Assembly (NCBI GenBank): GCA_902763185.1 | Contig: CACWQT010000002.1 | Location: forward strand, 71,874-135,873 | DNA from: an uncultured Rhodospirillales bacterium | GTDB lineage: Bacteria; Pseudomonadota; Alphaproteobacteria; RF32; CAG-239 | Reading direction: 5' to 3' | Length of the DNA stretch: 64,000 nucleotides | In this document: one piece after another, positions 5,673 to 38,495 of the stretch | Layout: each line of letters opens with the position of its first letter | Position numbering within the stretch: position 1 is the first letter of the stretch | Program-made: the position numbers and the translations under genes | Notes under the pieces: generated by a model | Told to the model about the DNA's origin: nothing | Database searches by the model: none | What the model saw: the letters and a program-made list of their open reading frames with translations, nothing else

Positions 5673-5721
5673 GTATTTAAGGCAAAACATTAAAAACCGA
5701 AAAATCGCCATAAAAGCAATT

Positions 5722-5846
5722 TTGCAAAGGGTGGAATAAAGTGCGGTGCTATCGTCGGATGTCCTGCCCTAAAGCGGAGCTTACTTAAGGGTAAGTGAGC
5801 ATTTAGGGACAGGCTTCCATCCGGCGATATGACCGTACTTTAGCAC
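5722..5846. repeat. Structured hairpin element, type B copy 1, with a GCAAAGGGTGG left flank and a CCCCCAC right flank
   Basis: The 94-nt imperfect hairpin at 5738..5831 pairs aaagtgcggtgctatcgtcggatgtcctgccctaaa with tttagggacaggcttccatccggcgatatgaccgtacttt. It shares ATGTCCTG (5749..5756) and ACAGGCTTCCAT (5799..5810) with the copy at 11056..11163. Confidence 0.75.
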
Positions 5847-5848
5847 AT

Positions 5849-5880
5849 CCCCCACTACAAAATCAAAAGAGCCACCTTGC
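5849..5880 (-). terminator. Rho-independent terminator of rpoA
   Basis: The reverse strand reads GGAGCUGCC-GCAA-GGUGGCUC followed by UUUUGAUUUU. This is a GNRA-capped stem plus a U-run, about 40 nt after the rpoA stop. Confidence 0.7.
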
Positions 5881-5917
5881 GGCAGCTCCTTATACGCAAT
5901 ATTTAAAGATTTAAGAT

Positions 5918-6928
5918 TTAGAAATGCTCATCGCACTTTTTAATCAACTCTTCAATATTCTCTGGTGGCCAACCCGGAGTTTCCATACCGAGATGGATTC
6001 CCATCTTAGCCAATACTTCTTTAATTTCGTTCAAAGACTTACGACCAAAGTTCGGTGTGCGGAGCATTTCTGCTTCTGTCTTTTGAACCAAATCACCGAT
6101 ATAAACGATATTGTCGTTCTTTAAGCAGTTTGCTGAACGAACAGAAAGCTCAAGTTCATCAACCTTGCGCAGAAGATTTCTGTCAAACGGAAGCTCTTCT
6201 TTAACATCAACAACTTCGCTTTCCGGCTCATCAAAGTTAATAAACGGCTTCAATTGGTCTTGCAAAATACGTGCAGACAAGGCAACGGCATCTTCAGGTG
6301 ATACCACACCGTTTGTTTCAACAACCATTGTCAACTTGTCATAATCTGTATTTTGACCGACACGAGTCTTATCAACTTTATAAGAAACTTTACGAACAGG
6401 AGAATAAATTGCATCAACAGCAATCACGCCGATTGTTGCATCAGCAGCCTTGTTTTGCACGGCAGGAACATAACCTTTACCTGTGCCTACTGTCATTTCC
6501 ATAGAAATTTTAGCACCTGCATCCAAAGTGCAGATAACATGATCAGGATTCATAATTTCAACATCATGACCTGTTTCAATCATACCGGCAGTAACAACTT
6601 TCGGACCTTCTGCCTTCAAGCGCATAATCTTCTGCCCTTCGGAATGAACGGCAACCGCCAATCCTTTAATATTTAAGATAACGTCAGTTACATCTTCACG
6701 CATGCCTTCAACAACTGAAAACTCGTGCAACACGCCGTCAATTTTAACGGAAGTAACTGCTCCGCCTTGTAAAGAAGATAACAAAACTCTTCTTAAGGCA
6801 TTACCTAAAGTTAAACCAAAACCTCTTTCCAAAGGTTCTACGACAATTTTCGCAATATTTTTGCCTTCGCCAGAATTAACCTCCAAATTAGTCGGTTTAA
6901 TTAGTTCTTGCCAATTTTTCTGAATCAC
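5918..6928 (-). CDS. rpoA: DNA-directed RNA polymerase subunit alpha
   Basis: 336 aa: [12 protein letters not shown]..., [18 protein letters not shown], and a C-terminal domain with [12 protein letters not shown]. Confidence 0.95.
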
Positions 6929-7015
6929 CGGAACACCCCTCTAATAGTTTATGTGCAATATACTATAACAAGTAGAGGAACAGATTCGCTCTTTCCTCTA
7001 CTTAAAACTCTAAAA

Positions 7016-7399
7016 TTAAACTCTGCGGCGTTTTCTTAAACGGCAGCCGTTATGCGGAATAGGAGTTACATCACGAATAGAAGTAATGGTAAATCCGATA
7101 ACCTGTAAAGCTCTGATAGCCGATTCGCGACCAGAACCAGGTCCCTTAACTTCAACTTCCAAAGTCTTCATACCATTTTCTTGTGCTTTTTTACCGGCTT
7201 CCTCGGCAGCAACTTGAGCAGCATACGGCGTAGATTTACGAGAGCCCTTAAAGCCCTGTGCACCGGCAGTAGACCAAGCAACTGTATTACCTTGAGCATC
7301 GGTAATTGTAACTCTAGTATTGTTAAATGTAGAATTTACATGAGCAACACCAGAGGTGATGTTCTTCTTTTCTTTCTTTTTAATAACTGTTTTTGCCAT
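7016..7399 (-). CDS. rpsK: 30S ribosomal protein S11
   Basis: 127 aa: [18 protein letters not shown] ... [13 protein letters not shown]. Confidence 0.95.
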
Positions 7400-7410
7400 C
7401 GCTACCTCAC

Positions 7411-7779
7411 TTACTTCTTCTTATTAGCAACAGTCTTGCGCTTACCTTTACGGGTTCTCGCATTTTGTTTTGTGCTTTGTCCGCGAACCGGCAAGCCTTT
7501 ACGATGACGAAGACCGCGGTAGCAACCTAAATCCATTAAGCGTTTAATGTTAACGCCGACTTCACGACGAAGTTCACCTTCAACGAGGTAGTCCTTATCA
7601 ATAACTTCACGAACCTTAGCGATATCTTCATCAGAGAGCTCATGCACCCGACGATCACCAGCTACGCCCGCTTTTGCACAGATAACCTGTGCGGTTTCTC
7701 TCCCGATGCCATAGATAGAGGTCAGAGCAATCTCAAGTTTCTTGGCAGTAGGAATATTTACACCAGCTATACGAGCCAA
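7411..7779 (-). CDS. rpsM: 30S ribosomal protein S13 (TTG start)
   Basis: 122 aa: [10 protein letters not shown]..., [22 protein letters not shown]. The start codon is TTG, preceded by GGAG. Confidence 0.95.
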
Positions 7780-7849
7780 ATTAAATCTCCATTTATTTAT
7801 ATATTAAACCATTCAAAAAGTTGATCACCACTTTTCAAAATTACTGCGG

Positions 7850-7877
7850 ATTATAGAACATAAATTCCTACTGTCAA
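7850..7877 (-). promoter_or_regulatory. Near-consensus sigma70-type promoter for rpsM-rpsK-rpoA
   Basis: The reverse strand reads TTGACA (7877..7872), a 16-nt spacer, then TATAAT (7855..7850), about 70 nt upstream of the rpsM start. Confidence 0.6.
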
Positions 7878-8047
7878 CAGTTCTTTTAAAAAAAATTAAA
7901 AAAAATGCATTTTAAATGAAAAGGTTAACCGGACTTTGACTTACTTGAGAACAGTGACCAATCGACTACCATTTATAACAAACCCAAAAAACAATCGTCT
8001 AAAATGAAACCATTTAATTAAAATACAAATCCCTCCAAGTTTTATAC

Positions 8048-9574
8048 CTATTCTTTTAAGGATGCATTGATGGCGTTTTCTTGCGCCCAATTTCGTATAG
8101 TATTAATATCATCCATCCTCATTTTAGCCATAGGAACCATTCTCTTTAATACTTTTTCAAAATCAGCCATGGACAAATTAGATTTACTTTCACCATTTAT
8201 CTTTCTTACATATGCTTCTAGTAGTGAATCCTTTACCCATGACTCAATTTCAGCTCCAGTTAGACGTATATTTTTACCAAGATTACTTTCTCCAGAAAGT
8301 TTTGCCAATTTATCTAAATCATAATTTTTTATATCTCTGCCTATTTTTCTTATATGGATTTCTAATATTTTCTTCCTTTCCTCAAAGTCTGGTAAATCCA
8401 CAAAGAAAATTTCATCAAAACGACCTTTACGGAGTAATTCTGGTGGAAGGCTAGTAATATTATTAGCTGTTGCAAAGGTAAATACTGAAGCCGTTTTATC
8501 TTGCATCCAAGTTAATATATTGCCCAAAACTCTAGAAGATGTGCCTGAATCGTTATCATTTTGAAGTCCTTTTTCAATCTCATCTATCCATAATACACAA
8601 GGTGCAATTGCTTCTGCTGTTTTTATAGCCTGTCTGATATTAGCTTCTGATTCTCCAATATATTTTCCATAGATTTTACCAATATCTAGCTTTAACAACG
8701 GCATATTCCAAGCCTTAGCTATACATTTTGCCGTTAAAGATTTTCCACATCCTGGAACTCCAACTAATAAAACGCCTTTAGGTGCTGTTAATCCAAACTT
8801 TTGAGCATCATCAGAAAATGTTTTACCTCTTATTTCAAGCCAATATTTTAAATTATCTAGGCCACCGATATCTTCTAACGATAAGGAATTTTCAATGTAT
8901 TCTAAAATTCCACTTTTTCGGATAATCTGTTTCTTTTCCTTAACAATGCTTTTAACATCACTAATATCTAGGCAATGATCTTCAACCAAAGCACGTGATA
9001 AACAATTTTCTATTTCAGCGTGGGTTAGTCCAATTGCAGCATCTGTTAAAGCCGTTATAACTTCTGGAGATGTATCAATCTGTGCTTTTTCTTCATCTTG
9101 ATAATCATCCATAAATTTTTTAATTTGTTTCTTAATAGATTCCCTATCTGGTAATGGATAATCTAATACCGTTACCTCTGATGCAATATCCTTACTTATA
9201 TCAGATGATGTGGAGATTATAATACAATTACATCTGTACCCTTTATGCCTGATGTTTATGGCAAATTCCTTAAATTCTCTTTCGTACGCAGAAAGCGAGA
9301 CATCAAAAAATACAAAAATTGCAGGTTTATCTAATTTTGCAAGTTTTTCACATGCTTTAATAGCGGTCTCCACATTTTTTGTGTATTCTTGATTTTCAAA
9401 ATCAATATGCTTTCCCTTCAGTCCAGAAACTGAACTCCAAGTTACTAAATAATGCTCTAGTGATTTGGTTATTTTTTCTATATCTGTAAGTAATCTATCC
9501 TCCTCAACAGTTTGAACCAAAATCAGAGGGTACCTAGCTTTGATATAATTTTTTAATTCATCACTAAAAGTCAT
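8048..9574 (-). CDS. Ycf46-like AAA+ ATPase (classic-clade AAA module with a roughly 260-aa N-terminal domain)
   Basis: It has Walker A GVPGCGKS, Walker B VLWIDEIE, and second-region-of-homology/Arg residues ATANNITSLPPELLRKGRFDEIFF. The N-terminal segment IKARYPLILVQTVEEDRL and the linker EKKQIIRKSGILEY...IGGLDNLK match my memory of the Ycf46 family. The ATG at 9574 has an AAAGGA RBS 6 nt upstream; the ORF track extends it to a TTG at 9589. Confidence 0.85.
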   Translation of the reverse strand: MTFSDELKNYIKARYPLILVQTVEEDRLLTDIEKITKSLEHYLVTWSSVSGLKGKHIDFENQEYTKNVETAIKACEKLAKLDKPAIFVFFDVSLSAYEREFKEFAINIRHKGYRCNCIIISTSSDISKDIASEVTVLDYPLPDRESIKKQIKKFMDDYQDEEKAQIDTSPEVITALTDAAIGLTHAEIENCLSRALVEDHCLDISDVKSIVKEKKQIIRKSGILEYIENSLSLEDIGGLDNLKYWLEIRGKTFSDDAQKFGLTAPKGVLLVGVPGCGKSLTAKCIAKAWNMPLLKLDIGKIYGKYIGESEANIRQAIKTAEAIAPCVLWIDEIEKGLQNDNDSGTSSRVLGNILTWMQDKTASVFTFATANNITSLPPELLRKGRFDEIFFVDLPDFEERKKILEIHIRKIGRDIKNYDLDKLAKLSGESNLGKNIRLTGAEIESWVKDSLLEAYVRKINGESKSNLSMADFEKVLKRMVPMAKMRMDDINTIRNWAQENAINASLKE

Positions 9575-9591
9575 TGCCCATCCTTTCAATA

Positions 9592-10794
9592 TTACAATTC
9601 CAAACGTCTTTTGGTATTTTTCGGCTTTTTCTTCTGCTTCATTGAAGAAGGTAAAGTCTCATTGGTAACATTTTCGTTATCAGATGAAGAACTTGCAATA
9701 TTTTTTATAGATTTTAAGACTCCATTTTCAAATGTTCCTGCTATTTTGGGATTACCATCTTCATCATGGGTAATAATTTCTCCATCAAACACACCACCAT
9801 TGTAAGTCGCTTTTGTTCGAGGTTTTCCGTCTTCATTAAAATTTTCTGTAGTTTCTAATACCCCATCTTTATAATGTGCAATGCATGTAACATTGCCAAC
9901 TTCATCATAAGTAATTGTTTCACCGTTTAATAATCCATTTTTATATGATGCATCTGTTTGAATACCTCCTGTATTGTAATATGCTTTTATGTTAATTATT
10001 TGATCATTCGCCCAATTTTCTTCTCGCGTTAAACGACCACTATTGTCATAATACTTTGAGATACCTTCTAATACATCGTTTGCATAAGTTGCTTCACTTT
10101 GCAGGGCACCATGGGGATAATAAAGTTTTGCGGTACCTTCAATCACACCATTTTTATACGGCATTTCACTTTTTAAGAAACAACCAGAATAAGCTTTTGA
10201 AATACCTTCAATTACTCCATTAACAAAGGGTGTTTCTGCTTCTAAATTTCCGTATTTATCATATTTTTTTGCCACACCATTTAATACATCATCATAGAAT
10301 TGAAATTCATATTCCAAATTACCTTTTTTATCGTATTGTTTCCATAGCCCATATTTTTTATTTCTATAGATTTTTCCTTCCCTATACAAATTTCCATTTC
10401 TATAATATTCTTGTGTTGTTTTAGCTAATTTAGCTTCATTTTCCTTGTTTTTTTCAGAATTTGATGAAGAAATTAAAGCAATAAGTAAAAATAAGACTAT
10501 CCAAACTATAAAAGATGTTTCACTTGATGTCTTTATAGCTCCTTGCGTTAAATATTTTTTTGCTATGTATCCTGTAATACTAACGTCAAAATTTTTAAGT
10601 TTAACAGTTGATTTAACCCACCCACTTGAGTGAAGTTCACCACTTATCTCTTGCCCTTTAGTTAAACTTCCTAAAATTCTGCATTTAGTACTAGCACATT
10701 CCCGAATATTAACAGATGCATTTGCCGTATAAACATTAGCATACGCATTTGATGAATTAAATAGAAATAAAATAAAAAATAAATATTTCAGCAC
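9592..10794 (-). CDS. Membrane protein: signal peptide + SH3b domain (outside) + one TM + about 10 MORN-variant (YwqK-type) repeats (inside) + Lys-rich tail
   Basis: It has a GTG start with GGAG 7 nt upstream. The order is signal peptide MLKYLFFILFLFNSSNAYA, then an SH3b-like segment (ANASVNIRECASTKCRILGSLTKGQEISGELHSSGWVKS), then the TM FIVWIVLFLLIALISSS followed by a K-rich segment. After that come repeated ~23-aa units (YxNGxxEGxxKxYxxxGxLxxE) and the tail KQKKKPKNTKRRLEL. Confidence 0.8.
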   Translation of the reverse strand: MLKYLFFILFLFNSSNAYANVYTANASVNIRECASTKCRILGSLTKGQEISGELHSSGWVKSTVKLKNFDVSITGYIAKKYLTQGAIKTSSETSFIVWIVLFLLIALISSSNSEKNKENEAKLAKTTQEYYRNGNLYREGKIYRNKKYGLWKQYDKKGNLEYEFQFYDDVLNGVAKKYDKYGNLEAETPFVNGVIEGISKAYSGCFLKSEMPYKNGVIEGTAKLYYPHGALQSEATYANDVLEGISKYYDNSGRLTREENWANDQIINIKAYYNTGGIQTDASYKNGLLNGETITYDEVGNVTCIAHYKDGVLETTENFNEDGKPRTKATYNGGVFDGEIITHDEDGNPKIAGTFENGVLKSIKNIASSSSDNENVTNETLPSSMKQKKKPKNTKRRLEL

Positions 10795-10872
10795 CCTTTG
10801 ACTCCATAACTACCCATATAAACTAAAATAAAAATAGATATAATGCAACCAATTTATCTTTTATTTCTAATC

Positions 10873-11025
10873 TTATATTTAAACTTAAAAGCCGCTTATC
10901 AAAGCGGCTTTTGCAATGGGTTTGAGAAAATGCCCTGCTGGAAGCAGATTTGCGACTGAGGTTTACAAAACCGGTAAATAAAGGAGCAAATCTGCAATCA
11001 TGAGGGCGTTTTACCAAGCCCCCAC
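10873..11025. repeat. Structured composite element, type A copy 1 (conserved 18-mer + small terminator hairpin + GCAATGGGTTTG linker + long hairpin + CCCCCAC)
   Basis: It consists of TTATATTTAAACTTAAAA (10873..10890), the hairpin GCCGCTT-ATCA-AAGCGGC (10891..10908), TTTTGCAATGGGTTTGA, a long hairpin at 10927..11012, and CCCCCAC at 11019..11025. It is homologous to 12688..12827. Confidence 0.8.
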
Positions 11026-11055
11026 GAAAAAATGCTTAGTTTAATAAAAAGAAAA

Positions 11056-11163
11056 AATTTGAGATGGATAGAAGTAAATGTCCTGTGGCAAAAATCCTAG
11101 TGTAGATAAAACTACATGAATTTTTGCCAACAGGCTTCCATTTACGATTAGACGTTCAAATTT
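11056..11163. repeat. Structured hairpin element, type B copy 2
   Basis: This 108-nt imperfect hairpin pairs aaatttgagatggatagaagtaaatgtcctgtggcaaaaat with atttttgccaacaggcttccatttacgattagacgttcaaattt. It ends 7 nt from the secY stop. It shares ATGTCCTG (11078..11085) and ACAGGCTTCCAT (11130..11141) with copy 1. Confidence 0.75.
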
Positions 11164-11169
11164 TCCTTT

Positions 11170-12513
11170 TTATTTCTTTTTCTTGACGAGAGCAGCCTTC
11201 TTCAACAACCCCTCATACTGATACGCAAACAAGTGCGATTGAACTTGTGTGATAAAGTCAAGTGTCACTTGCACCACGATGAGAAGTGTTGTTCCACCCA
11301 AAACAAACGGAACATTTAACTTGGCAATCAAAATTTCCGGCAAGATACACAATGCCGCCAAATAAGTTGCACCGAGAACGGTTAAACGGGTTACCACATA
11401 ATCCAAATACTCTGCGGTATTTTTACCGGGACGAATACCGGCAATAAATCCGCCATGCTTTTTGAGGTTATCAGCGGTTTCTTCGGGGTTAACCACAACA
11501 GCGGTGTAGAAGAACGCAAAGAACACAATCAAGAACGCATATAAGAATAAGTAAAGCGGTTGACCATGACTTAAATAACGACTTAAAGTTTGCACCCATG
11601 CCGGTCCATTAGTTGACCAAATATTGGCAATTGTAATCGGGAGCAACAACAAAGCGCTGGCAAAAATCGGCGGAATAACACCGGTCGGGTTAACTTTTAA
11701 CGGCAAATGAGAGCTTTCAGCGGCTGTCATGCGAAGACCGATTTGACGCTTAGGATATTGCACCAAAATCTTTCTTTGTGCCATTTCCACCTTTAAGATA
11801 ATAAACACCAACAAAATACTCATCAGGAACAAGCCCAAGATAACCAAAGGTGACATAGAACCGATACGCCCTAATTCCAATGTCTGACCGATTGCAGACG
11901 GCACGTTAGCAATAATACCGACGGTAATAATAAGAGATGAGCCGTTACCGACACCGCGTGAGGTGATTTGATCACCGAGCCAAACGATAAACATTGTGCC
12001 ACCGGTAAGCGAAATAATGGTAGAAAAGATAAATGTATAAGGCGCGATTACCACCGCACTGGAACCGTCACCGTTAGATAAGCTCATAAGACCAAGCGCG
12101 ATACCATAACCTTGAACAATTGTAATTAAAACGGTTAGGAGCTTGGTATAATGCACCATTTTGCGGTGCCCTGCTTCGCCCTCTTTCTTAAGCGCCGCCA
12201 AAGACGGAACAATTGACTGTCCCAATTGTAAGATAATGGAGGCCGAGATGTAAGGCATAATGTTTAAGGCAAAAATGGTCATACGCTCCAACGCACCACC
12301 GGAAAACATGTTAAACATACCCAAGATACCGTTAGAATGTCTGGCAAACAAATCCGCAAGCACCCGCGAATCAATGCCCGGAAGCGGAATAAACGTTCCC
12401 AAACGGAAGACGATTAAAGCGCCCAAAGTAAACCACAAACGTTTTTTCAAATCCGTTGCTTTACTAAAGATAGAAACATCTATATTTGCTGTCTTTTCAC
12501 TTAATGCGACCAT
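11170..12513 (-). CDS. secY: Preprotein translocase subunit SecY
   Basis: SKATDLKKRLWFTLGALIVFRLGTFIPLPGID and the full 10-TM layout are present. I chose the start at MVALSEK (12513), which has AAGGA 8 nt upstream; the ORF track extends to 12540. Confidence 0.95.
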   Translation of the reverse strand: MVALSEKTANIDVSIFSKATDLKKRLWFTLGALIVFRLGTFIPLPGIDSRVLADLFARHSNGILGMFNMFSGGALERMTIFALNIMPYISASIILQLGQSIVPSLAALKKEGEAGHRKMVHYTKLLTVLITIVQGYGIALGLMSLSNGDGSSAVVIAPYTFIFSTIISLTGGTMFIVWLGDQITSRGVGNGSSLIITVGIIANVPSAIGQTLELGRIGSMSPLVILGLFLMSILLVFIILKVEMAQRKILVQYPKRQIGLRMTAAESSHLPLKVNPTGVIPPIFASALLLLPITIANIWSTNGPAWVQTLSRYLSHGQPLYLFLYAFLIVFFAFFYTAVVVNPEETADNLKKHGGFIAGIRPGKNTAEYLDYVVTRLTVLGATYLAALCILPEILIAKLNVPFVLGGTTLLIVVQVTLDFITQVQSHLFAYQYEGLLKKAALVKKKK

Positions 12514-12687
12514 TTTTATTTCCTTAAAATTATTATTCAAACACGACAGAAAAGCACTGTTTTTGACACAGATACTTTACCGAATTGCACCTAATCTAAA
12601 CCATAAAATTTAATTTTACCTTTAAAAAGTGCTACTTTTCCACCACCTTTTAAACAAAAGAACAGGAGTAAGAAACATAAAAAAATT

Positions 12688-12827
12688 TTATATTTAAACT
12701 TAAAAATCGCTCTTTTATGCGATTTTTGCAATGGGTTTGAAAAAGTGTCGCGCTTGAAGTAAATTTCCGACCGCGGTGTATAAAACCAATACATAAGGGA
12801 GGAAATTTATGATAATGGCGATGCTTT
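12688..12827. repeat. Structured composite element, type A copy 2
   Basis: It has the same 18-mer TTATATTTAAACTTAAAA (12688..12705), a small hairpin ATCGCTC-TTTT-ATGCGAT, TTTTGCAATGGGTTTGA, and a long hairpin at 12741..12827 whose 3' arm overlaps the trmB stop codon. Its apical 32 nt are 24/32 identical to copy 1, and the differences are compensatory. Confidence 0.8.
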
Positions 12828-13566
12828 AACGAACCCTCTTATAATTAAAGAATACCGGACGGCGCCCTTCCCGTATAGCCTTCTCCTGATACTTAGTCCT
12901 CACCCAATCTTCAGGCTCATGTTTCCAATCATTACCGCATTTTGCTGTCCAAATAAAATCCGAACACGCATGCATGACCCGAAGCACATGACGCTTATAA
13001 ACCGGATGATCGGTTGCCACCCGAAATAAACCGCCTTTTTTTAATACACGCGCCAACTCTTTTAGATTATCTGGATTAACAAACCGTCGTTCGGTATGCC
13101 GTTTTTTCGGCCACGGATCCGGAAAGAGCAAAAAGATTTTATCAAAAAACGCATCGGGAATTTCGTGAAACAATAGGCGCACATCATCATCAAACACACG
13201 GATATTGTTCACCGGATAAGCGAGCGCATCAATATTTTCCGGCAGATTAACACCCTCCTTAACGCCGCTGATAAGTGTCATCAGATTGGCGACACCATTC
13301 TTAAACACTTCCACACCGATATAACCGTTTTGAGGATTTTTCAAGGCTTGACCATAAAGATGCTGCCCGTCACCAAAACCAATTTCCAGACAAATTTCTT
13401 TTTTAGGCTCACCAAACATTGTATCGTGATTAAAATCAGCCTTACGCGAAACACGCAACTGCGGCAACATAACATCCAACAAGTAGCTCTTGGCCTTGCG
13501 CACCACGCGCCCTTTGCGTCTGCCAAAGAATTTAGGCGCATCAGAAACTATGTGTAAACTAGACAT
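12826..13566 (-). CDS. trmB: tRNA (guanine46-N7)-methyltransferase TrmB
   Basis: 246 aa with the SAM-binding EIGFGDG and the TrmB signature FPDPWPKKRHTERRF. Confidence 0.9.
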   Translation of the reverse strand: MSSLHIVSDAPKFFGRRKGRVVRKAKSYLLDVMLPQLRVSRKADFNHDTMFGEPKKEICLEIGFGDGQHLYGQALKNPQNGYIGVEVFKNGVANLMTLISGVKEGVNLPENIDALAYPVNNIRVFDDDVRLLFHEIPDAFFDKIFLLFPDPWPKKRHTERRFVNPDNLKELARVLKKGGLFRVATDHPVYKRHVLRVMHACSDFIWTAKCGNDWKHEPEDWVRTKYQEKAIREGRRPVFFNYKRVR

Positions 13567-14056
13567 CTAAATCCGCGTCATCTTTGTCACGAAGACTGGT
13601 TAACATAATCAACAACGCGTTTCTGGAACGTGGCGGTAAAGCATAAAATGCTTTCAATAACATCGTCGCCTCTGTGCCGTCCATCGGATCAAACTGCGGC
13701 TCGGTAACATCCTCGTTTAAGAAACCAACCCCAAAATCTTTATTATATTCCGGCAATTTCACATAAGATTCCGCTGGCACATCACTATAAAAATAGCTGA
13801 TATCAACACCTAAAATTGCTGCAATGCTATATAATCTTCCGGCACCGATACGATTCATACCCTTTTCATATTTCTGCACTTGTTGAAAGGTGATTCCCAA
13901 ACGGTCTGCCAATTCTTTTTGGCTCAACTGCAACAATTTACGGCGAGCACTGATACGGGCACCGACATGAATATCAACGGGACCGATGCCGCTTTCATAC
14001 ACACCATCGGCATTAATCATCTGTGACTTTGGTTTACGTCCGCGAGGCATTTTCAT
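13559..14056 (-). CDS. XRE-family helix-turn-helix transcriptional regulator
   Basis: 165 aa. It has the HTH LSQKELADRLGITFQQVQKYEKGMNRI and overlaps the trmB start by 8 nt. Confidence 0.8.
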   Translation of the reverse strand: MKMPRGRKPKSQMINADGVYESGIGPVDIHVGARISARRKLLQLSQKELADRLGITFQQVQKYEKGMNRIGAGRLYSIAAILGVDISYFYSDVPAESYVKLPEYNKDFGVGFLNEDVTEPQFDPMDGTEATMLLKAFYALPPRSRNALLIMLTSLRDKDDADLDV

Positions 14057-14081
14057 TCTCCTAAAAAATTAAATACTGCAT

Positions 14082-14165
14082 TAGTGATACACTGAAATTT
14101 CACAAACCGCAACAACTTTTTGGCGAAAAATACAACTATGACGATAGTGATACACCAAAAAGTTG
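14082..14165. promoter_or_regulatory. Candidate operator repeats in the XRE/MFS divergent region
   Basis: The 11-nt direct repeat TAGTGATACAC occurs at 14082..14092 and 14145..14155, a 63-bp spacing. An 11-nt inverted repeat pairs CAACTTTTTGG (14113..14123) with CCAAAAAGTTG (14155..14165). Confidence 0.4.
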
Positions 14166-14287
14166 ACAACAAGCCATAGCGATTCGCCTTTTAATTGTAT
14201 ATTGAACTTTCAAAAGCAAATTTTTCTTGCTTTTTACGCTGTCCAGAATAGTATACTTCATAAAAAAGAACTTTCAAAGGAACGACC

Positions 14288-15499
14288 ATGATACCTGTTA
14301 AAACAGCGCATCGGTGGCTAACAGTTGCCAACGCCTTAACGGAAACGCAATTTATTTTGCCGGTTTTGATGCTGTTTTATGGCTATAAAGGGGTAAACAT
14401 GGGCGATTTTTTCCTAATCCAAGGTATCTGCTGCATTGCTATATTCATCCTTGAAGTGCCAACCGGTTACATCAGTGACATCTTTTCCAGAAAAAATACC
14501 ATTATCCTTGGGGCTATTGCCTGGATAATCGGGTATCTGTTCCTTATTTTCGGTTATGGTTTTACCACCATCTTAACCGGCGAACTTTGTTTCGCCTTAG
14601 CTATATCCCTAATGTCCGGAACTATTGAGGCTTACTTATACGACCTTTTAAAAAAACGCCACAAAGAAGGCTCTTTCCATAAAAAGTATGCTAAAATGAA
14701 AACATTGAGCAATTTAACGATTATGGTGGGCGCACTAAGCGGTGCGTTCCTATATCAATTTATCGGTCCGACTGCGCCACTATGGGCAACAGTTATCGGG
14801 CTGATGATAACTGCCACAATTTTAATTTTGTTACCTGACGTGCCGGAGTCAAAAAGAATTGTTGCCGAAAACAAAAGCAAATGGCAGGATATCTGCGATA
14901 TTTCAAAATACGCCCTCAAACATCAGGAACTAAAATGGCTGATGTTGTTTCCGGCATTTTATGGAACAATGACATTGATTTTGATGTGGGGTTTGCAGTC
15001 AGTCATGATAACCAAAAACGTTCCTGTTTTTATGTTTAGCGTTGTTATGAGCGCCAACGCATTTATGCGTGTGATTTGGTCAGGATTTTCATCAAAAGCC
15101 CTTGAAAAATTAAACTTGTCCGGCATTCTTGTTTTACAAAGCATTGTGATTACCATTGCCGCTATCGGTGCATCGATCGCAGAATACACCAACAATATCG
15201 GTGTTTATGTGTGCCTATTTTTAATGATTTTAGGAAGTTCCTCGGTGGTGCTATCCAATATTACATCTTCGGTTCTGATTAACCACCGCATCAAATCAGA
15301 TGAACGCGCAACCATATTATCTGTCGGTTCTATGGTAAACCGCATATTTTGGTCAATCGGAATGATAGGCTTAAAACCATTATTTGATACACTAAGCCTC
15401 AGCAAAACATTTTTAATAACTTCATTGATGCTCTTCCCGATTATCTTTTGCGCACGTCACTTATATAAGATGAAATTAAAAACCATGGGCGAGAGATAA
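14288..15499 (+). CDS. MFS-type transporter (paralog of 27011..28225)
   Basis: 403 aa and about 12 TM. The N-terminal region LLMLFYGYKGVNMGDFFLIQGICCIAIFILEVPTGYISD is clearly paralogous to the 27011 gene product. Confidence 0.75.
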   Translation: MIPVKTAHRWLTVANALTETQFILPVLMLFYGYKGVNMGDFFLIQGICCIAIFILEVPTGYISDIFSRKNTIILGAIAWIIGYLFLIFGYGFTTILTGELCFALAISLMSGTIEAYLYDLLKKRHKEGSFHKKYAKMKTLSNLTIMVGALSGAFLYQFIGPTAPLWATVIGLMITATILILLPDVPESKRIVAENKSKWQDICDISKYALKHQELKWLMLFPAFYGTMTLILMWGLQSVMITKNVPVFMFSVVMSANAFMRVIWSGFSSKALEKLNLSGILVLQSIVITIAAIGASIAEYTNNIGVYVCLFLMILGSSSVVLSNITSSVLINHRIKSDERATILSVGSMVNRIFWSIGMIGLKPLFDTLSLSKTFLITSLMLFPIIFCARHLYKMKLKTMGER

Positions 15500-16205: not shown

Positions 16206-16226
16206 AAATTGAGCAACAGAAACCGC

Positions 16227-16254
16227 TTGAATTTTAGAAAAAAAGCATTATACT
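16227..16254 (+). promoter_or_regulatory. Putative ssrA promoter
   Basis: TTGAAT (16227..16232), a 16-nt spacer, then TATACT (16249..16254). Confidence 0.5.
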
Positions 16255-16261
16255 GATTACA

Positions 16262-16566
16262 GTTTGGGTTTACTCAAACTATAATACGAAAAGCCGTATG
16301 AAATAGATATATTGGACCCGAGGGCAGTACTCGGCGCCTCCACCAGTTTAAGGGGGCGAAATAGGTTTGACAGTGTATAGTAAAGATATTTGTGCTGTAT
16401 TCGGCAAGACACCACCGTTATCGGTTCAAATCAAATAAACGCAAATGATAATTTTGCACCTGTTGCTGTAGCTGCTTAAGCCAAGCAACAAAGCTAAATT
16501 CTTTAAGCTATGGTTAGCATAAAGTGGGGGGTGAGCCACCCAGCAACAGAACGGCTCATTTATTTA
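16262..16566 (+). ncRNA. ssrA: Two-piece (circularly permuted) tmRNA, alphaproteobacterial type
   Basis: The acceptor piece ends ...CGCCTCC-A-CCA at 16345. The coding piece begins GGGGGCG at 16352..16358, which pairs with CGCCTCC including a G3:U wobble. The tag frame GCA AAT GAT AAT TTT GCA CCT GTT GCT GTA GCT GCT TAA (16441..16479) encodes ANDNFAPVAVAA*. A terminal hairpin TGAGCC-N15-GGCTCA with a T-rich tail lies at 16532..16566. The 5' boundary is approximate. Confidence 0.85.
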
Positions 16567-34598: not shown

Positions 34599-37500
34599 AT
34601 GAAGAAAAAATTATTTTTCACAACAGCCTTAGTTGCCGCATCGTTTGTTGTCAACAACGCACTAGCAGAGACAATTACGGAACGACAAGTTATCAACTCC
34701 GGTGAAGAAAGAACCTTTAATCAGGCAACCGCAGACGGAATTGACAGCCCTTACATGAGTGGTGGTGTCATTAAAAATGCGGGAACGGTCAATATAAACG
34801 ATTCAGAATTTACCAATGATTCAGCCGATTATGGTGGGGTAATTTATAATTCAAATGAATTAAACATTGATTCTTCTACATTTAATAACAATCACGCATC
34901 CTCCTCCGGCGGCGCTATTCACAACAGCACAAACGGCACTGTAAACATTACCGGAAATACAACTTTTGAGGGCAACACCCATAGTCCTAATGCCGGTGAT
35001 GACATTCCTAATGATGTTTTTAACACGGGAACCTTAAATCTTAATCCTGATAAAAAGGAAAAGATCTTTTTTGGCGGCGGTATTGACGGTGATGGCGGTA
35101 GTGAACACGGAACCCTGAATATTAATGGTCAAGGTGAGGTTTGGGTCAGAAATGAGTTAATCTATCATGATGTCAATCTGAATTCCGGCTCGTTGGTATT
35201 AGCTCCGTCAACATCAGCAAAAGCATCCCGATTCGTTATTGAGGACAATGCAAAATTCAGTGCAAACAACACAGTATTTAAGAACAGCCATGCCGGTGAA
35301 GAAGAAGATGGCGGTGCTATTTCCAGAACCTTTACAAACGAGGATAATGCCGGCGAGGAAATCATCAGTATCACCAGTTCTGAGTTCAAGAACAATACGG
35401 CTGAAAGCGGCGGTGCCATTTCAAATGAGCGCATCGGTAGTGAAGAAGGTGCCGTATCTTATGTTAGTCCGACATTTATAGCACACACTGTTTTTGATGA
35501 AAATGAAGCAGAATATAGCGGTGGGGCAATTTATAACGAAGGAACAATGCAAATCGTAAATTCTGAATTTGACAACAACAAAACAACCGACGGGCGATCT
35601 TATGGTGGTGCCATTTATAATGGCTCAAAGGGATTACTTACAATCGACTATTCAGACTTTAATAAGAACAAGACCGGATTCTCCGGCGGTGCCATCTACA
35701 ACGATGATGGTGATATAATTATTTCAAATTCAAACTTTACGGAAAACTCTGCCGACGGTCAAAGCAATCCAAGTGGTTTTGGCGGGGCTATTTATAATGA
35801 AACAGGTAAAATAACAATAACCGATTCTACTTTTGACGGAAACAACGCAACAGGCTCAGCTGTTAGTTCCGGAGGAGCAATTTATAACGATGCGAGAATG
35901 GATGAAAAACGCAATCCCGCAGCAATTATAAAAATATCTAATTCAGAATTCCAAAATAACGAAACAAGTTTGGGCGGTGCTATATATAACGGTGGCCAAT
36001 TAGATCTTACCGATGTTTCATTTGCTGAAAACAAGGCCGCTTTTGAGAACCGAAATTTCGGCGGAAGTGGCGGAGCTTTGTATAATTATTGGTTAGCAAA
36101 TATCAATGGTGGTTCGTTTAAGCACAATAATGCATTTGATGGCGGGGCAATTTTTAACCGTGATACAGCAACAATCAGCTCCACCTTTACAGAAAATAAT
36201 GCCTATCTCGGCGGCGCAATCTATAATGAACGTAATATGTCCATTTCAGATTCTACTTTTAGCGGTAACACAGCTACGGAAGATGATTCTGAATCTGGTT
36301 TATCAAGCGGCAAAGGCGGTGCTATTTATAATTATGGCAAAATGGACATTGTAAATACAACCTTTGAGGATAACAGCACAGATAAATACTATTCCTTTGG
36401 TGGTGCTATTTATAATAATAAGTATGGTAAAATTGTTATTTCCGATTCCGCATTTTCAAAAAATGAAGCTAAAAACGGTGATGGATATGGAGCGGGACAT
36501 GGCGGAGCTATCAGCAATGTTGATGGTGGCACAATAACTATCTCTGATACAACCTTTACCGATAACAAGACATATGGTGCAGCAGGCTCACCGGATGCTG
36601 GTGGTGCAATTTATAACGATATCGGCACCATAAAAATTACAAATGCAACCTTTTCCAACAATGAAACCGTTGGCTCCGCAACCGGTATGGGTGGTGCCAT
36701 TTATAACGAGGGATCATTGGACGATGACGGAATAGTAGAAATATCAGATACAACTTTTAACAGCAACAGATCAAGTTTTGGCGGAGCAATTAATAATAAC
36801 AGCGTATTAAAGCTAACCAATGTTAAATTTAACCAAAACCAAGCACATATGGACTATGCCGTTGGTGAATATGGCGGTATAGGCGGATCCGTATATAATA
36901 ACGATTTCGGACAAGCTACAATCGTCAATGGTATGTTCGTAAATAACTCCTCTGAAGGTAATGGCGGCGCTATATATAATAGAGGAAAACTATCTTTCAG
37001 CGGAGACACCGTATTTGAAGGCAACACCTCAAGAGATGTAAAGAACGACATTTATAACAGTTATGGAACAATCAATGTAGACGGAAATATATCTTTGGAT
37101 GGCGGTATCATCAATTCCGGCACAATTAATTTTAACAATGCAAATTTGAAAGCAAATCTTGTTGATGCTGACGATGACACCACTAAAATTATCGCCGGTG
37201 TTGATGCAACACATTTGGGAACACTTAACGGTTCAATAAACTTAGTATTAACTGATGAGGATATCACTAAAAAGATTGTTTTGGAAGGTGATAAAACCGG
37301 CTTCAACTTAGATAATACTTTGTATAATGTTGAGTTTGACAAAGCCGACACTTATACTGTTTCAGGCAAAAAGAATGCCGGTCAGATTGCAGAATCAACC
37401 GGTGCTAACGCAAATCAGGCCGGCACCATTGAAGCAATTATGTCAAATACCGCGGCTACCGGCAATGCTAACTTTAATGCCATTGCGTCTGACCTCAACA

Positions 37501-38495
37501 ATATGTTGCAATCTGGTAACACGGCACAAATTCAGACAGCATTAGAAGCTGTTGCAACATTGGCTCCGGGTGTTGCCCCGATGGTTGAACAAACTCAAAC
37601 GGAAACGGTTAACCAAGTATTTAATGCGGTCGGAACACGCTTAAGCGGCGGAGCTTTTAGCAGTTCACAAGGTATGTCATCAGGCGACGCCTGGGAAAAT
37701 GCCACCGTTTGGATGCAAGGCCTAGCTAACCATACAAAACTTGATACATCATCAAAATCTACCGGTTTCAAAGCTGATACTTACGGCGCAGCTTTCGGGG
37801 TAGAAAAGAAAATCGATAATGATGTAAAAGCAGGTATCGGTTATGCTTATAACAAAACAGATGTTAACAGCAAAGGGCGTGATACTGATGTTAAAACCCA
37901 CACCCTCTTAGCCTATGGCGAATATAAACCAAGCGATTGGTTTGTAAACGGTATCGCCTCTTATAACTGGTCTGATTACAAAGAAAAGAAAAATGTAATC
38001 GGTAATATTATAAACGCTGATTACGATGTTGATGCATTAGGTATACAGGTAATGACCGGATATGATTTACATAATCAATATGCCACCATTACACCGGAAG
38101 CCGGATTGCGTTATATGCATATTCACGGCGATAATTATACCGATACTGCCGGACAAAATATCAATTTTAATAACAGCAATATCATAACCGGAGTTGCGGG
38201 CTCAAAAATCAGCAAAACCATTGAAACTGAATCCGGCTTAAGATTAACACCGGAAGCGAGATTTGCGATGACTTATGACTTGAACAGGGCTCATAATAAA
38301 TCAAACGTAATGCTGCCAAATGGTTCATTATACAGCATCAACGGTAAAACCTTAGACCGTTTTGGCGTTGAAATAGGTGCCGGTTTAACTGCTGAAATCA
38401 ATTACAACATTGAGATGTCATTAGGCTATGAAGGTAGCTTCCGCAAAGATTATCAAAGCCACAGCGGCTTGCTTGACGTTAAATACAAATTTTAA
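34599..38495 (+). CDS. Autotransporter adhesin-like protein with Pmp-type (GGAI/FxxN) repeats and a C-terminal beta-barrel
   Basis: 1298 aa with the signal peptide MKKKLFFTTALVAASFVVNNALA. It has about 20 copies of F-x-x-N...GGAIYN. The C-terminal ~280 aa have alternating beta-strand character and end ...LLDVKYKF (aromatic terminus). Confidence 0.9.
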   Translation: MKKKLFFTTALVAASFVVNNALAETITERQVINSGEERTFNQATADGIDSPYMSGGVIKNAGTVNINDSEFTNDSADYGGVIYNSNELNIDSSTFNNNHASSSGGAIHNSTNGTVNITGNTTFEGNTHSPNAGDDIPNDVFNTGTLNLNPDKKEKIFFGGGIDGDGGSEHGTLNINGQGEVWVRNELIYHDVNLNSGSLVLAPSTSAKASRFVIEDNAKFSANNTVFKNSHAGEEEDGGAISRTFTNEDNAGEEIISITSSEFKNNTAESGGAISNERIGSEEGAVSYVSPTFIAHTVFDENEAEYSGGAIYNEGTMQIVNSEFDNNKTTDGRSYGGAIYNGSKGLLTIDYSDFNKNKTGFSGGAIYNDDGDIIISNSNFTENSADGQSNPSGFGGAIYNETGKITITDSTFDGNNATGSAVSSGGAIYNDARMDEKRNPAAIIKISNSEFQNNETSLGGAIYNGGQLDLTDVSFAENKAAFENRNFGGSGGALYNYWLANINGGSFKHNNAFDGGAIFNRDTATISSTFTENNAYLGGAIYNERNMSISDSTFSGNTATEDDSESGLSSGKGGAIYNYGKMDIVNTTFEDNSTDKYYSFGGAIYNNKYGKIVISDSAFSKNEAKNGDGYGAGHGGAISNVDGGTITISDTTFTDNKTYGAAGSPDAGGAIYNDIGTIKITNATFSNNETVGSATGMGGAIYNEGSLDDDGIVEISDTTFNSNRSSFGGAINNNSVLKLTNVKFNQNQAHMDYAVGEYGGIGGSVYNNDFGQATIVNGMFVNNSSEGNGGAIYNRGKLSFSGDTVFEGNTSRDVKNDIYNSYGTINVDGNISLDGGIINSGTINFNNANLKANLVDADDDTTKIIAGVDATHLGTLNGSINLVLTDEDITKKIVLEGDKTGFNLDNTLYNVEFDKADTYTVSGKKNAGQIAESTGANANQAGTIEAIMSNTAATGNANFNAIASDLNNMLQSGNTAQIQTALEAVATLAPGVAPMVEQTQTETVNQVFNAVGTRLSGGAFSSSQGMSSGDAWENATVWMQGLANHTKLDTSSKSTGFKADTYGAAFGVEKKIDNDVKAGIGYAYNKTDVNSKGRDTDVKTHTLLAYGEYKPSDWFVNGIASYNWSDYKEKKNVIGNIINADYDVDALGIQVMTGYDLHNQYATITPEAGLRYMHIHGDNYTDTAGQNINFNNSNIITGVAGSKISKTIETESGLRLTPEARFAMTYDLNRAHNKSNVMLPNGSLYSINGKTLDRFGVEIGAGLTAEINYNIEMSLGYEGSFRKDYQSHSGLLDVKYKF

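Follow-up and report, generated by a model that had tools for sequence, protein, structure and literature searches.

The two structured elements beginning at positions 10873 and 12688 of the 64,000-nucleotide stretch of DNA analyzed here (the window) are members of a previously undescribed, modular non-coding palindromic repeat family, with approximately 25 units identified by profile and covariance model searches in the window and 13 other contigs (MAGs of uncultured gut and rumen Alphaproteobacteria). The family resembles REP/REPIN-type repeats more than a 3′-UTR small RNA, and on balance we regard it as a REP/BIME- or REPIN-like structured repeat that would act as single-stranded DNA (ssDNA) and double as a gene-end terminator cassette. 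An unusual and well-supported property is a fixed replication polarity combined with a position at stop codons, and a long hairpin with clean covariation, a detachable terminator module, and replication-linked orientation at the stops of core genes are traits rarely combined in one unit. A first-pass annotation of the window had proposed a selected fold that resembles a 3′-UTR-derived small RNA or chaperone-binding platform and is not a recently spread MITE; that interpretation is partly supported, in that the structure is selected, but the family is a repeat element and the small RNA reading is not supported.

Copies in the window and organization of the family

Copies A (10873 to 11023) and B (12688 to 12840) are homologous and align without gaps over ∼153 nt with 73 to 77% identity (blastn E = 7e-23). 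Each contains a conserved box, a GC-rich hairpin between an A-run and a T-run, and a 104-nt imperfect hairpin, at the base of which GGGTTTG pairs with CAAGCCC or CGAACCC. Two blocks are exactly shared, an 18-mer at 10873 and 12688 and a 17-mer, which includes the GGGTTTG, at 10909 and 12724, and neither occurs elsewhere in the window. The order of parts given in the first-pass annotation (18-mer, small hairpin, 17-mer, long hairpin) is confirmed, and both copies form the same two-hairpin shape, with + strand z scores of −8.5 and −7.2 relative to shuffled sequence. Three dimensions of the earlier description are revised: the long hairpin, put at ∼86 nt, is 104 nt (10918 to 11021 and 12733 to 12836) with the GGGTTTG pairing included; copy B does not end at 12827 but runs to ∼12840 and includes the trmB stop; and the copies are not two but three, a divergent one at 5688 to 5856 having been missed. 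Scanning the entire window with a covariance model, filters disabled, gives exactly three matches, all on the + strand (152, 147, and 118 bits), and no more than 28 bits on the − strand, a comparison that is partly circular because the model was built on the + strand. The features are as follows.

5688..5856, + strand: copy C, a divergent unit (covariance model match, 118 bits).
10873..10890, + strand: left conserved box of copy A, TTATATTTAAACTTAAAA, an exact 18-mer in copies A and B that is conserved across 21 units.
10886..10913, no strand assigned: module T of copy A, a small GC-rich hairpin with the core GCCGCTT/AAGCGGC at 10891 to 10908 and AAAA and TTTT flanks.
10909..10925, + strand: linker and 5′ strand of the basal stem of copy A, TTTTGCAATGGGTTTGA, with alignment columns 41 to 52 invariant or nearly so.
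10918..11021, + strand: module H of copy A, a 104-nt imperfect hairpin of −68.4 kcal/mol on the + strand versus −53.9 on the − strand.
11041..11171, no strand assigned: the "Type B" repeat, an unrelated neighbor that separates copy A from the secY stop and has a hairpin flanked by GAGATGGATAGAAGTAAATGTCC ... GGCTTCCATTTACGATTAGACG.
12688..12705, + strand: left conserved box of copy B, identical to that of copy A.
12701..12728, no strand assigned: module T of copy B, an ATCGC/GCGAT core with an A/T extension, the stem being unlike that of copy A yet still pairing.
12733..12836, + strand: module H of copy B, 104 nt, −56.3 kcal/mol on the + strand versus −37.7 on the − strand (covariance model match 12690 to 12842, 147 bits).

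Copy A (covariance model match 10875 to 11027, 152 bits) illustrates the organization of a full unit. Its module T resembles an intrinsic terminator that could work in both directions, its T-tract being better on the − (gene) strand; read on that strand, the left box provides a distal T-rich tract, TTTTAAGTTTAAATATAA, after the small hairpin, and the last As of the box are the A-tract of the hairpin. The linker block TTTTGCAATGGG is the most conserved of the family. Module H is composed of helices P1 to P6 and 2×2 internal loops, including a tandem G-A; its apical stem is closed by a conserved G-T and carries an A-rich loop of 7 nt. In copy B, pairs 18-40 and 19-39 of module T are compensatory relative to copy A, bearing out the earlier observation that the stems of the small hairpin differ and both pair. 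The 3′ end of copy B module H overlaps the last trmB codons and the TAA stop (12826 to 12828, − strand), and thus the element supplies the end of the trmB gene. Copy C lies between a U32 peptidase gene (+ strand) and the terminator and gene of rpoA (− strand), and has a degenerate module T (5700 to 5723), TTTTGCAAAGGGT at 5720, and a 122-nt H hairpin (5729 to 5850) with a different and longer apex; its nearest relatives are the L015 and L018 units (∼80%). The window has a GC content of ∼40% and also codes for a two-piece alpha tmRNA at 16223 to 16560.

Relatives were sought with a degenerate pattern derived from the three window copies, scanning one genome per species and then JGI metagenomes. 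True relatives are found only in "Alphaproteobacteria bacterium" MAGs and gut- or rumen-type contigs (loci L010, L012/L013, L015, L018, L019, L030, L036, L038, L039, and L042); L023 and L027 were obtained through contigs carrying SecY homologs. Pattern matches in Lachnospiraceae, Parapedobacter, Achromobacter, and others are without the hairpins and were discarded as chance, and a scan of viral contigs gives no matches. Comparison with Rfam 15, as proposed in the first-pass annotation, yields no matching family at the elements at either gathering or permissive thresholds. The sole subthreshold match, to Leu_leader on the − strand of copy A (29 bits versus a threshold of 50), was taken as a chance hairpin-plus-terminator similarity.

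Units are organized with a left box of family consensus ATTTAAA(A)CYNAAAA, the variable GC hairpin of module T, TTTTGCAATGGGT, the long hairpin of module H, and an end reading ...CCCC. Module T is a short GC hairpin with conserved flanks, ATTTAAAACYNAAAA and TTTTGCAAT, and module H is an imperfect hairpin of 105 to 130 nt in which the base, GGGTGGGATAAAGTGC ... GCACTTTAGCACACCCC, is conserved, whereas the interior is variable and covaries. The modules are separable, and there are H-only units (L012c and L013d), a 5′-truncated H (L013c), and a decayed unit (L027b); the L010 unit carries a foreign hairpin inside its apex. Several loci contain head-to-tail arrays, with three units in L012, four in L013 (one truncated), two each in L019 and L036, and 1.5 in L027. 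Subfamilies of the interior stem recur across contigs, with copy A grouping with L036b/c (83 to 86%), copy B with L042 (73%), and copy C with L015/L018 (∼80%), although the basal stem and flanks of copies A and B are identical to each other, and the units are therefore mosaics. No near-identical dispersed copies, which would point to recent mobility, are seen among the ∼25 units, in agreement with the earlier view that the copies are diverged and not the product of a recent burst.

Compensatory change and the strand that folds

Among 37 modeled pairs compared between copies A and B, 22 are identical, three have a one-sided change to or from G-U, 12 have double compensatory changes, and none is broken, and identity is lower in paired columns (64%) than in unpaired columns (77%). 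The arms of the long hairpin had been described as unrelated sequences that nonetheless pair; the pairing holds, but the arms are homologous column for column, with GCAGATTTGC and GTAAATTTCC identical at 6 of 10 positions and the differences compensated. The apical 32 nt, for which 24 identities had been given, have ∼23 by count from the alignment.

Alignment of 21 units gives a consensus fold of 37 pairs in seven helices. Standard pairs occupy 94.7% of the pair cells of these 21 units, which are not phylogenetically independent, compared with 34 to 47% when the partners are slid by one to three columns, and double-sided changes are present in 28 of the 37 pairs, compared with 7 to 12 in the slid controls. 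None of 500 shuffles reaches any observed pairing measure, the helices are 92 to 98% paired across the 21 units, and the module T stem (helix 1) covaries across the family between conserved flanks. The fold is clearly under constraint, with pairing kept by compensatory substitution both between copies A and B and across the 21 units, and the earlier proposal of a selected fold stands. A caution is that covariation alone cannot tell an RNA gene from a structured DNA repeat.

The element strand, which corresponds to the window + strand and is antisense to secY and trmB, is the more stable in every full unit, by 3 to 19 kcal/mol, although the gene-strand fold of copies A and B is still strong (z = −4.1 and −3.7). 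Wobble pairs have a similar bias. On the element strand there are 85 G-U cells versus 15 A-C cells among the pair cells of the 21 units (not phylogenetically independent), and counted as distinct column states there are 19 G-U versus 14 A-C. Each A-C state occurs in just one or two units, whereas G-U states occur in 3 to 19, indicating that A-C does not last on the element strand. In most units, the 2×2 loop that separates helices four and five takes the form of a tandem G-A on the element strand, and on the other strand it is a pyrimidine mismatch. Mutation bias was considered as a source of the asymmetry and rejected, as C-to-T pressure on the G-rich strand would predict the opposite pattern; local bias should put wobbles on the other, G- and T-rich strand, and the asymmetry is therefore unlikely to be a mutational by-product. 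Three pair positions are G-T on one strand, and A-C on the other, in 10 to 19 of the 21 units, and these three most conserved wobbles could equally be conserved A-C mismatches recognized on the G-rich strand, in which case the strand call weakens. TnpA-REP requires such stem mismatches in REPs for ssDNA binding (PMC3333891).

Small structured RNA genes or cis-antisense RNAs transcribed from the C-rich (window +) strand and composed of the T hairpin plus H would also fit the G-U pattern, tandem G-A loops, and very low folding energies of that strand. Such RNAs would be antisense to the 3′ ends of core genes, and in arrays, where each H is followed by a hairpin and UUUU, the next T hairpin would be the terminator. 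We consider RNAs of this type unlikely, because there is no shared promoter upstream (the sequences 5′ of the ATTTAAAC box are unrelated), single units are without a terminator after H, and there is no Rfam match; moreover, placement that is always on the lagging strand, truncated and H-only copies, and presence/absence turnover would be unusual for a trans-acting RNA family.

Four further candidates were set aside. By eye, the conserved boxes have no consistent −35/−10 or −24/−12 spacing of a sigma-70 or sigma-54 promoter, and the consensus scan of the window gives no pertinent match there. A small open reading frame in the hairpin (ATGAC... or TTGAC... after an AGGAG-like loop) does not conserve its start, frame, or length between units, and the apical 3×2 loop does not have the tandem G-A/A-G required of a K-turn. 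A remnant of a class C, terminator-targeting group II intron was considered on account of a GTGCG-like 5′ motif, but this is present in some units only and domains V and VI are absent.

Gene ends, termination, and replication polarity

At 13 of 16 sites a gene on the opposite strand ends at the CCCC end of the element, and in 10 of these 13 its stop codon either abuts the element (TAG or TAA directly followed by GGGG) or lies inside it (GG.TAAAG); where it lies inside, the element encodes the last residues of the protein (...GAR or ...VR before the stop). The adjoining genes include trmB, secY, rpoC, tuf, rplI, and those for PFOR (pyruvate:ferredoxin oxidoreductase), DHFR, an amidase, and YceG, and one array lies between argS and rpoB. 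Both window copies recognized at first were placed immediately 3′ of reverse-strand genes, which is correct for copy B, with the trmB stop inside it, but not for copy A, which is 145 nt from the secY stop with the Type B repeat between; copy C follows the rpoA gene's own terminator. The three exceptions to the gene-end rule are L036a, which lies between same-sense genes, and L038b and the L013 array, which are in divergent promoter regions.

On the gene strand, the parts follow one another as stop codon, long hairpin, CCCATTGCAAAA linker, GC hairpin, and TTTTnnGTTTAAAT, matching the earlier description of a long hairpin, linker, and terminator hairpin with a U-run, and the end of the unit is predicted to resemble a good intrinsic terminator. 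Module T by eye has five to seven GC-rich pairs followed by TTTTAAGTTTAAAT on the gene strand and TTTTGCAAT on the other. A terminator consensus scan of the window does not flag module T, probably because the A-T extension uses up the T-run. There are no further T-like modules elsewhere in the window, and T is thus part of the element rather than a generic terminator of the genome.

Composition of the flanking DNA places the elements in a consistent relation to replication. At 17 of 18 sites the flanks have a negative GC skew on the element strand, and GC3 skew, when projected on this strand, has a negative value in 14 of 14 loci, such that the element strand is C-rich at third codon positions; the 14 include L015, L019, L039, and L042, where most of the coding DNA is on the element's own strand. 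Within the window, − strand genes have positive GC3 skew and + strand genes negative (54 of 58 genes agree), and the skew therefore follows the chromosome strand and not gene sense. The exceptions to the gene-end rule (L036a, L038b, and the L013 array) keep the replication-linked orientation. Orientation follows replication, being linked more closely to strand composition than to the genes, and if GC skew is read in the usual way, the strand that folds better is in every case the template of the leading strand.

These observations bear directly on the proposal that the units are gene-sense 3′-UTR elements, in which the upstream mRNA would run through H and end at T, and which would serve as a stabilizer, a processing site, a small RNA, or a chaperone platform with the CCCAUUGCAAAA linker. 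Such a role fits the 13 of 16 sites that follow a gene on that strand, usually 0 to 2 nt from the stop or overlapping it, the better T-tracts of module T on the gene strand (TTTTAAGTTTAAAT and TTTTCGGTTTTAAA), the frequency of highly expressed core genes among the hosts, the position of the linker as the most conserved block, and the strong gene-strand fold noted above (z = −4.1 and −3.7). The gene-strand fold is nonetheless consistently the weaker, having A-C mismatches in place of the G-U pairs of the other strand and pyrimidine loops in place of its G-A loops, and the elements are absent from the same 3′ UTRs in close relatives. L036a, L038b, and the L013 array keep the replication orientation despite their gene arrangement, and a 3′-UTR element would not be expected to track replication at sites such as L036a and L038b, where the flanking genes have the other direction. 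The better fold on the opposite strand (by 3 to 19 kcal/mol), the persistence of G-U there, and the tracking of replication in 14 of 14 loci also count against the 3′-UTR small RNA first suggested, and we judge a gene-sense role rather unlikely as the main explanation.

A bolder reading of the polarity is that the family represents a new type of replication-polar, single-strand-folded DNA site on the leading-strand template, positioned at the stop codons of leading-strand core genes and providing its own stop and terminator. We give this only a minor chance, but if true it would imply a new hairpin-recognizing mobilization or recombination system that is not RAYT, IS200/IS605, or integron, or alternatively an element domesticated by the host to manage the traffic of transcription and replication where highly expressed genes end. 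If the polarity reflects an ssDNA mechanism, the family offers a tractable case for repeat copying and gene-end placement; a polarity that reflects function would be relevant to the way in which highly expressed genes are terminated and insulated in compact genomes.

Turnover and comparison with known repeats

The distribution of units differs among close relatives. The trmB-secY spacer is empty in L028 (SecY 91% identical) and contains unrelated sequence in L027 (SecY 96% identical). In L027 an additional unit is joined directly to the secY stop and is followed by a decayed ortholog of copy A. There are no units in the 21-kb loci of five relatives (L020 to L022, L025, and L026; ∼105 kb in total; SecY 79 to 92% identical), and a sixth species (L023/L024; SecY 86% identical) has no unit near secY and one ∼8 kb downstream. 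The three copies in the 64-kb window are all inside 7.2 kb, compared with zero in the ∼105 kb of relatives. By these comparisons, units are gained, lost, and replaced on the time scale of species divergence.

Presence/absence between relatives is what an ordinary cut-and-paste MITE would give, for example an IS630/mariner-type element with a TA duplication (like Correia), in which the palindrome would correspond to long terminal inverted repeats. TA is the commonest dinucleotide on both flanks of T+H units, and tandem junctions read ...CCCC-TA-TTTAAAC (L036b/c and L019). Both TA and AAT were tried as a target-site duplication or target motif and neither is consistent, TA being merely the commonest flank, and it is present on both ends only in a minority of units. 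The two ends of the T+H unit, ATTTAAAC on the left and ...CCCC on the right, are not terminal inverted repeats, and pairing is conserved along the whole 50-nt arms, whereas a transposase needs only conserved end sequence; strict replication polarity is also unexpected for elements cut and pasted as double strands. A MITE of this kind is therefore improbable. No clean pair of empty and filled sites that would define the unit ends was found among the relatives' loci, and a tblastn search with Escherichia coli RayT gives no transposase or RAYT match in ∼560 kb, a tiny sample of these genomes.

Structured intergenic repeats (REP, BIME, REPIN, BOX, SPRITE, and bcr) shape mRNA stability, transcription termination, and genome architecture, and to our knowledge the mode of spread is still unclear for most of them. 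Under the REP/BIME- or REPIN-like explanation that we favor, the fold would be used as single-stranded DNA and would serve as substrate for the machinery by which the element is copied, moved, or maintained, by analogy with REP/RAYT, the ends of IS200/IS605, and integron attC sites. Use of the fold as ssDNA would explain why orientation is coupled to the direction of replication. With its in-frame stops and a predicted bidirectional terminator, the unit would be tolerated or even useful when inserted at gene 3′ ends, where it would serve as a stop-plus-terminator cassette with a 3′ hairpin.

The units share with REP, BIME, and REPIN elements an extragenic location mostly at gene 3′ ends and a long imperfect hairpin with conserved ends and a covarying interior (PMC3116915, PMC3333891). 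Further points in common are several sequence types per genome that differ by changes preserving the pairs, mismatches conserved in the stem, clusters that are mosaic and tandem and include linker motifs, and a presumed ssDNA biology. REP types differ at positions that preserve complementarity (PMC3333891, Fig. 1 legend), and REPINs, which form long hairpins and occur in tandem clusters, have conserved ends and compensated spacers, for which "compensatory changes ... are common" (PMC3116915). The first-pass annotation held that a recently spread MITE would not show conserved structure with diverged sequence; as an argument against a mobile repeat this fails because REP types and REPINs combine exactly these properties (PMC3333891, PMC3116915), and the element itself is dispersed, modular, sometimes tandem, and present or absent at orthologous sites, as mobile-type repeats are. 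In E. coli and Pseudomonas, REPs and REPINs are associated with RAYTs, which are TnpA-REP transposases of the Y1 HUH type whose genes typically have the repeats as neighbors on both sides.

There are also differences from REPs. The arms are 50 to 60 nt each, compared with the 20- to 35-nt REP, a terminator-like module with conserved flanks is attached, and copy density looks low for a class of repeat that is characterized by high copy number. The REP hallmark, a 5′ GTAG at the foot of the hairpin, is not consistent: (G/A)TAG directly before the G-run on the G-rich strand is seen in only ∼7 to 9 of 25 units, in several of which it coincides with the host stop codon or the T/H junction and may be no more than that, and the remaining units are flanked differently. 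We know of no description for REPs of a strict replication orientation with the better fold on the C-rich strand.

Other structured repeats share some of these features. SPRITE is a ∼100-nt repeat biased to gene 3′ ends with a fold that mimics an intrinsic terminator (reviewed in PMC3184786), but it is unrelated in sequence and phylum, and it is the terminator fold itself, whereas here the terminator module is separable and lies beside a longer hairpin. The bcr1 repeat of the Bacillus cereus group (∼155 bp) is dispersed with a nonconserved distribution and has a cruciform-like fold kept by compensatory changes (PMC3184786); unlike the present family, it is flanked by 5-bp direct repeats and is transcribed, and no flanking duplication was found around the units described here. 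Rickettsia palindromic elements (RPE) and the Caulobacter CIR are, like these units, ∼100- to 150-bp palindromic repeats in Alphaproteobacteria, a comparison made by description only. RPEs can become part of an open reading frame, as the units do at the last codons of trmB and secY, but they insert in frame inside genes, whereas the units lie at the stop codon or beyond it. The GANTC sites of CcrM that define CIR are not evident in the family.

The ends of IS200/IS605 elements and of their nonautonomous derivatives are similar in having imperfect subterminal ssDNA hairpins, no terminal inverted repeats, no target duplication, and a replication-coupled orientation. Their active strand is on the lagging-strand template, whereas the best-folding strand here is the other one, and no conserved 4- to 5-nt target is seen 5′ of the units.

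Integron attC sites likewise function through the fold of one DNA strand, have diverged sequences, overlap the ends of open reading frames, and have an orientation tied to replication. In chromosomal integrons, the attC bottom strands are on the leading-strand template. An attC-like recombination site, with the hairpin formed by the strand complementary to the genes and kept on that template, would account for a conserved structure with diverged sequence, a strand-specific fold antisense to the adjacent open reading frame, overlap with the stop, and a length of ∼100 to 130 nt. It is highly improbable, as there are no R and L boxes (RYYYAAC ... GTTRRRY), the ends reading AATGGGT... and ...CCCC, and no integrase nearby, the neighbors are syntenic housekeeping genes (secY, trmB, rpoA, rpoC, and tuf) rather than promoterless cassettes, and head-to-tail sites without intervening open reading frames are unlike cassette arrays.

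The Type B repeat next to copy A belongs to the same mosaic of gene-end repeats as copy A, and further copies of it were identified by nhmmer in L042, L023 (two copies), L024, and L028.

Operon order and repeats around secY

The ribosomal-protein/secY operon is split in this lineage (window 5918-13566, compared with L025/L026), and the new junctions of the broken-up operon are the sites of repeats. In the window, an HTH gene and trmB stand ahead of secY in place of rplO, and no adk lies between secY and rpsM; the classical rplO-secY-adk-rpsM order is retained in more distant relatives (SecY identity 79%). Copy A, a unit of the structured palindromic repeat family, is separated from rpsM by two genes, which together span window 8048-10794:

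AAA+ ATPase gene, - strand, 513 aa, with weak nSTAND3 similarity
Gene for an SH3 plus MORN-repeat protein, - strand, 400 aa

Both are missing at this position in L027, the closest relative, in which the rpsM promoter directly follows secY, and the pair looks like a two-gene insertion adjoining copy A.

The region downstream of rpoA

In L027, whose SecY is 96% identical, the gene immediately downstream of rpoA encodes Cas9 (5801-9269; domains Cas9_a, HNH_4 and RuvC_III) and occupies the place taken in the window by copy C, another unit of the palindromic family, and a U32 peptidase gene. The position of copy C corresponds in L020 to non-coding G-rich tandem repeats downstream of rpoA (13630-14909), with a unit of roughly 150 nt (...AGAAAGCCCTTCGGAGCAAGCGTCGGTTGGCGCTTGGTG...); this stretch, 1.3-1.6 kb long and interrupted by an assembly gap (Ns), is present at the same position in L021/L022.

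Type B repeats and hairpin interiors

A second repeat family, Type B, is organized as a variable hairpin between the conserved ends GAGATGGATAGAAGTAAATGTCC and GGCTTCCATTTACGATTAGACG, and is represented by the following copies:

Window 11041-11171, immediately past the secY stop
L042 8802-8925
L023/L024 19545-19802, two copies in tandem
L028 9351-9436, shortened

Copy C and the L015/L018 units also carry, in their apex, an ATGTCC...GGCTTCCAT motif resembling Type B, which suggests that elements are nested or chimeric. The palindromic-family unit at L010 6689-6873 has a foreign terminator-like hairpin, AAAAAGGTCGCCACACGGGCGACCTTTCTTT, replacing the usual apex of the long hairpin, a further sign that the interior of this hairpin accepts insertions.

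Other features of the window

Window 16223-16560, + strand, two-piece (permuted) alphaproteobacterial tmRNA, 211 bits
Window 7747-7819, - strand, match to the Alpha operon ribosome-binding-site leader (RF00140, threshold 38 bits), scoring 30 bits, E = 6e-4
Window 34599-38495, + strand, ORF of 1298 aa
Window 35500-36800, + strand, diverged in-frame repeats (31-46-nt families D2 and D3) inside this ORF

The permuted tmRNA identifies the class of the organism. The RF00140 match, though sub-threshold, is possibly real, since it sits upstream of rpsM, where such a leader is expected. Translation of one ORF repeat, CGGTGGGGCAATTTATAACGA, gives GGAIYN, and the predicted product resembles a surface or adhesin-like protein rich in repeats.
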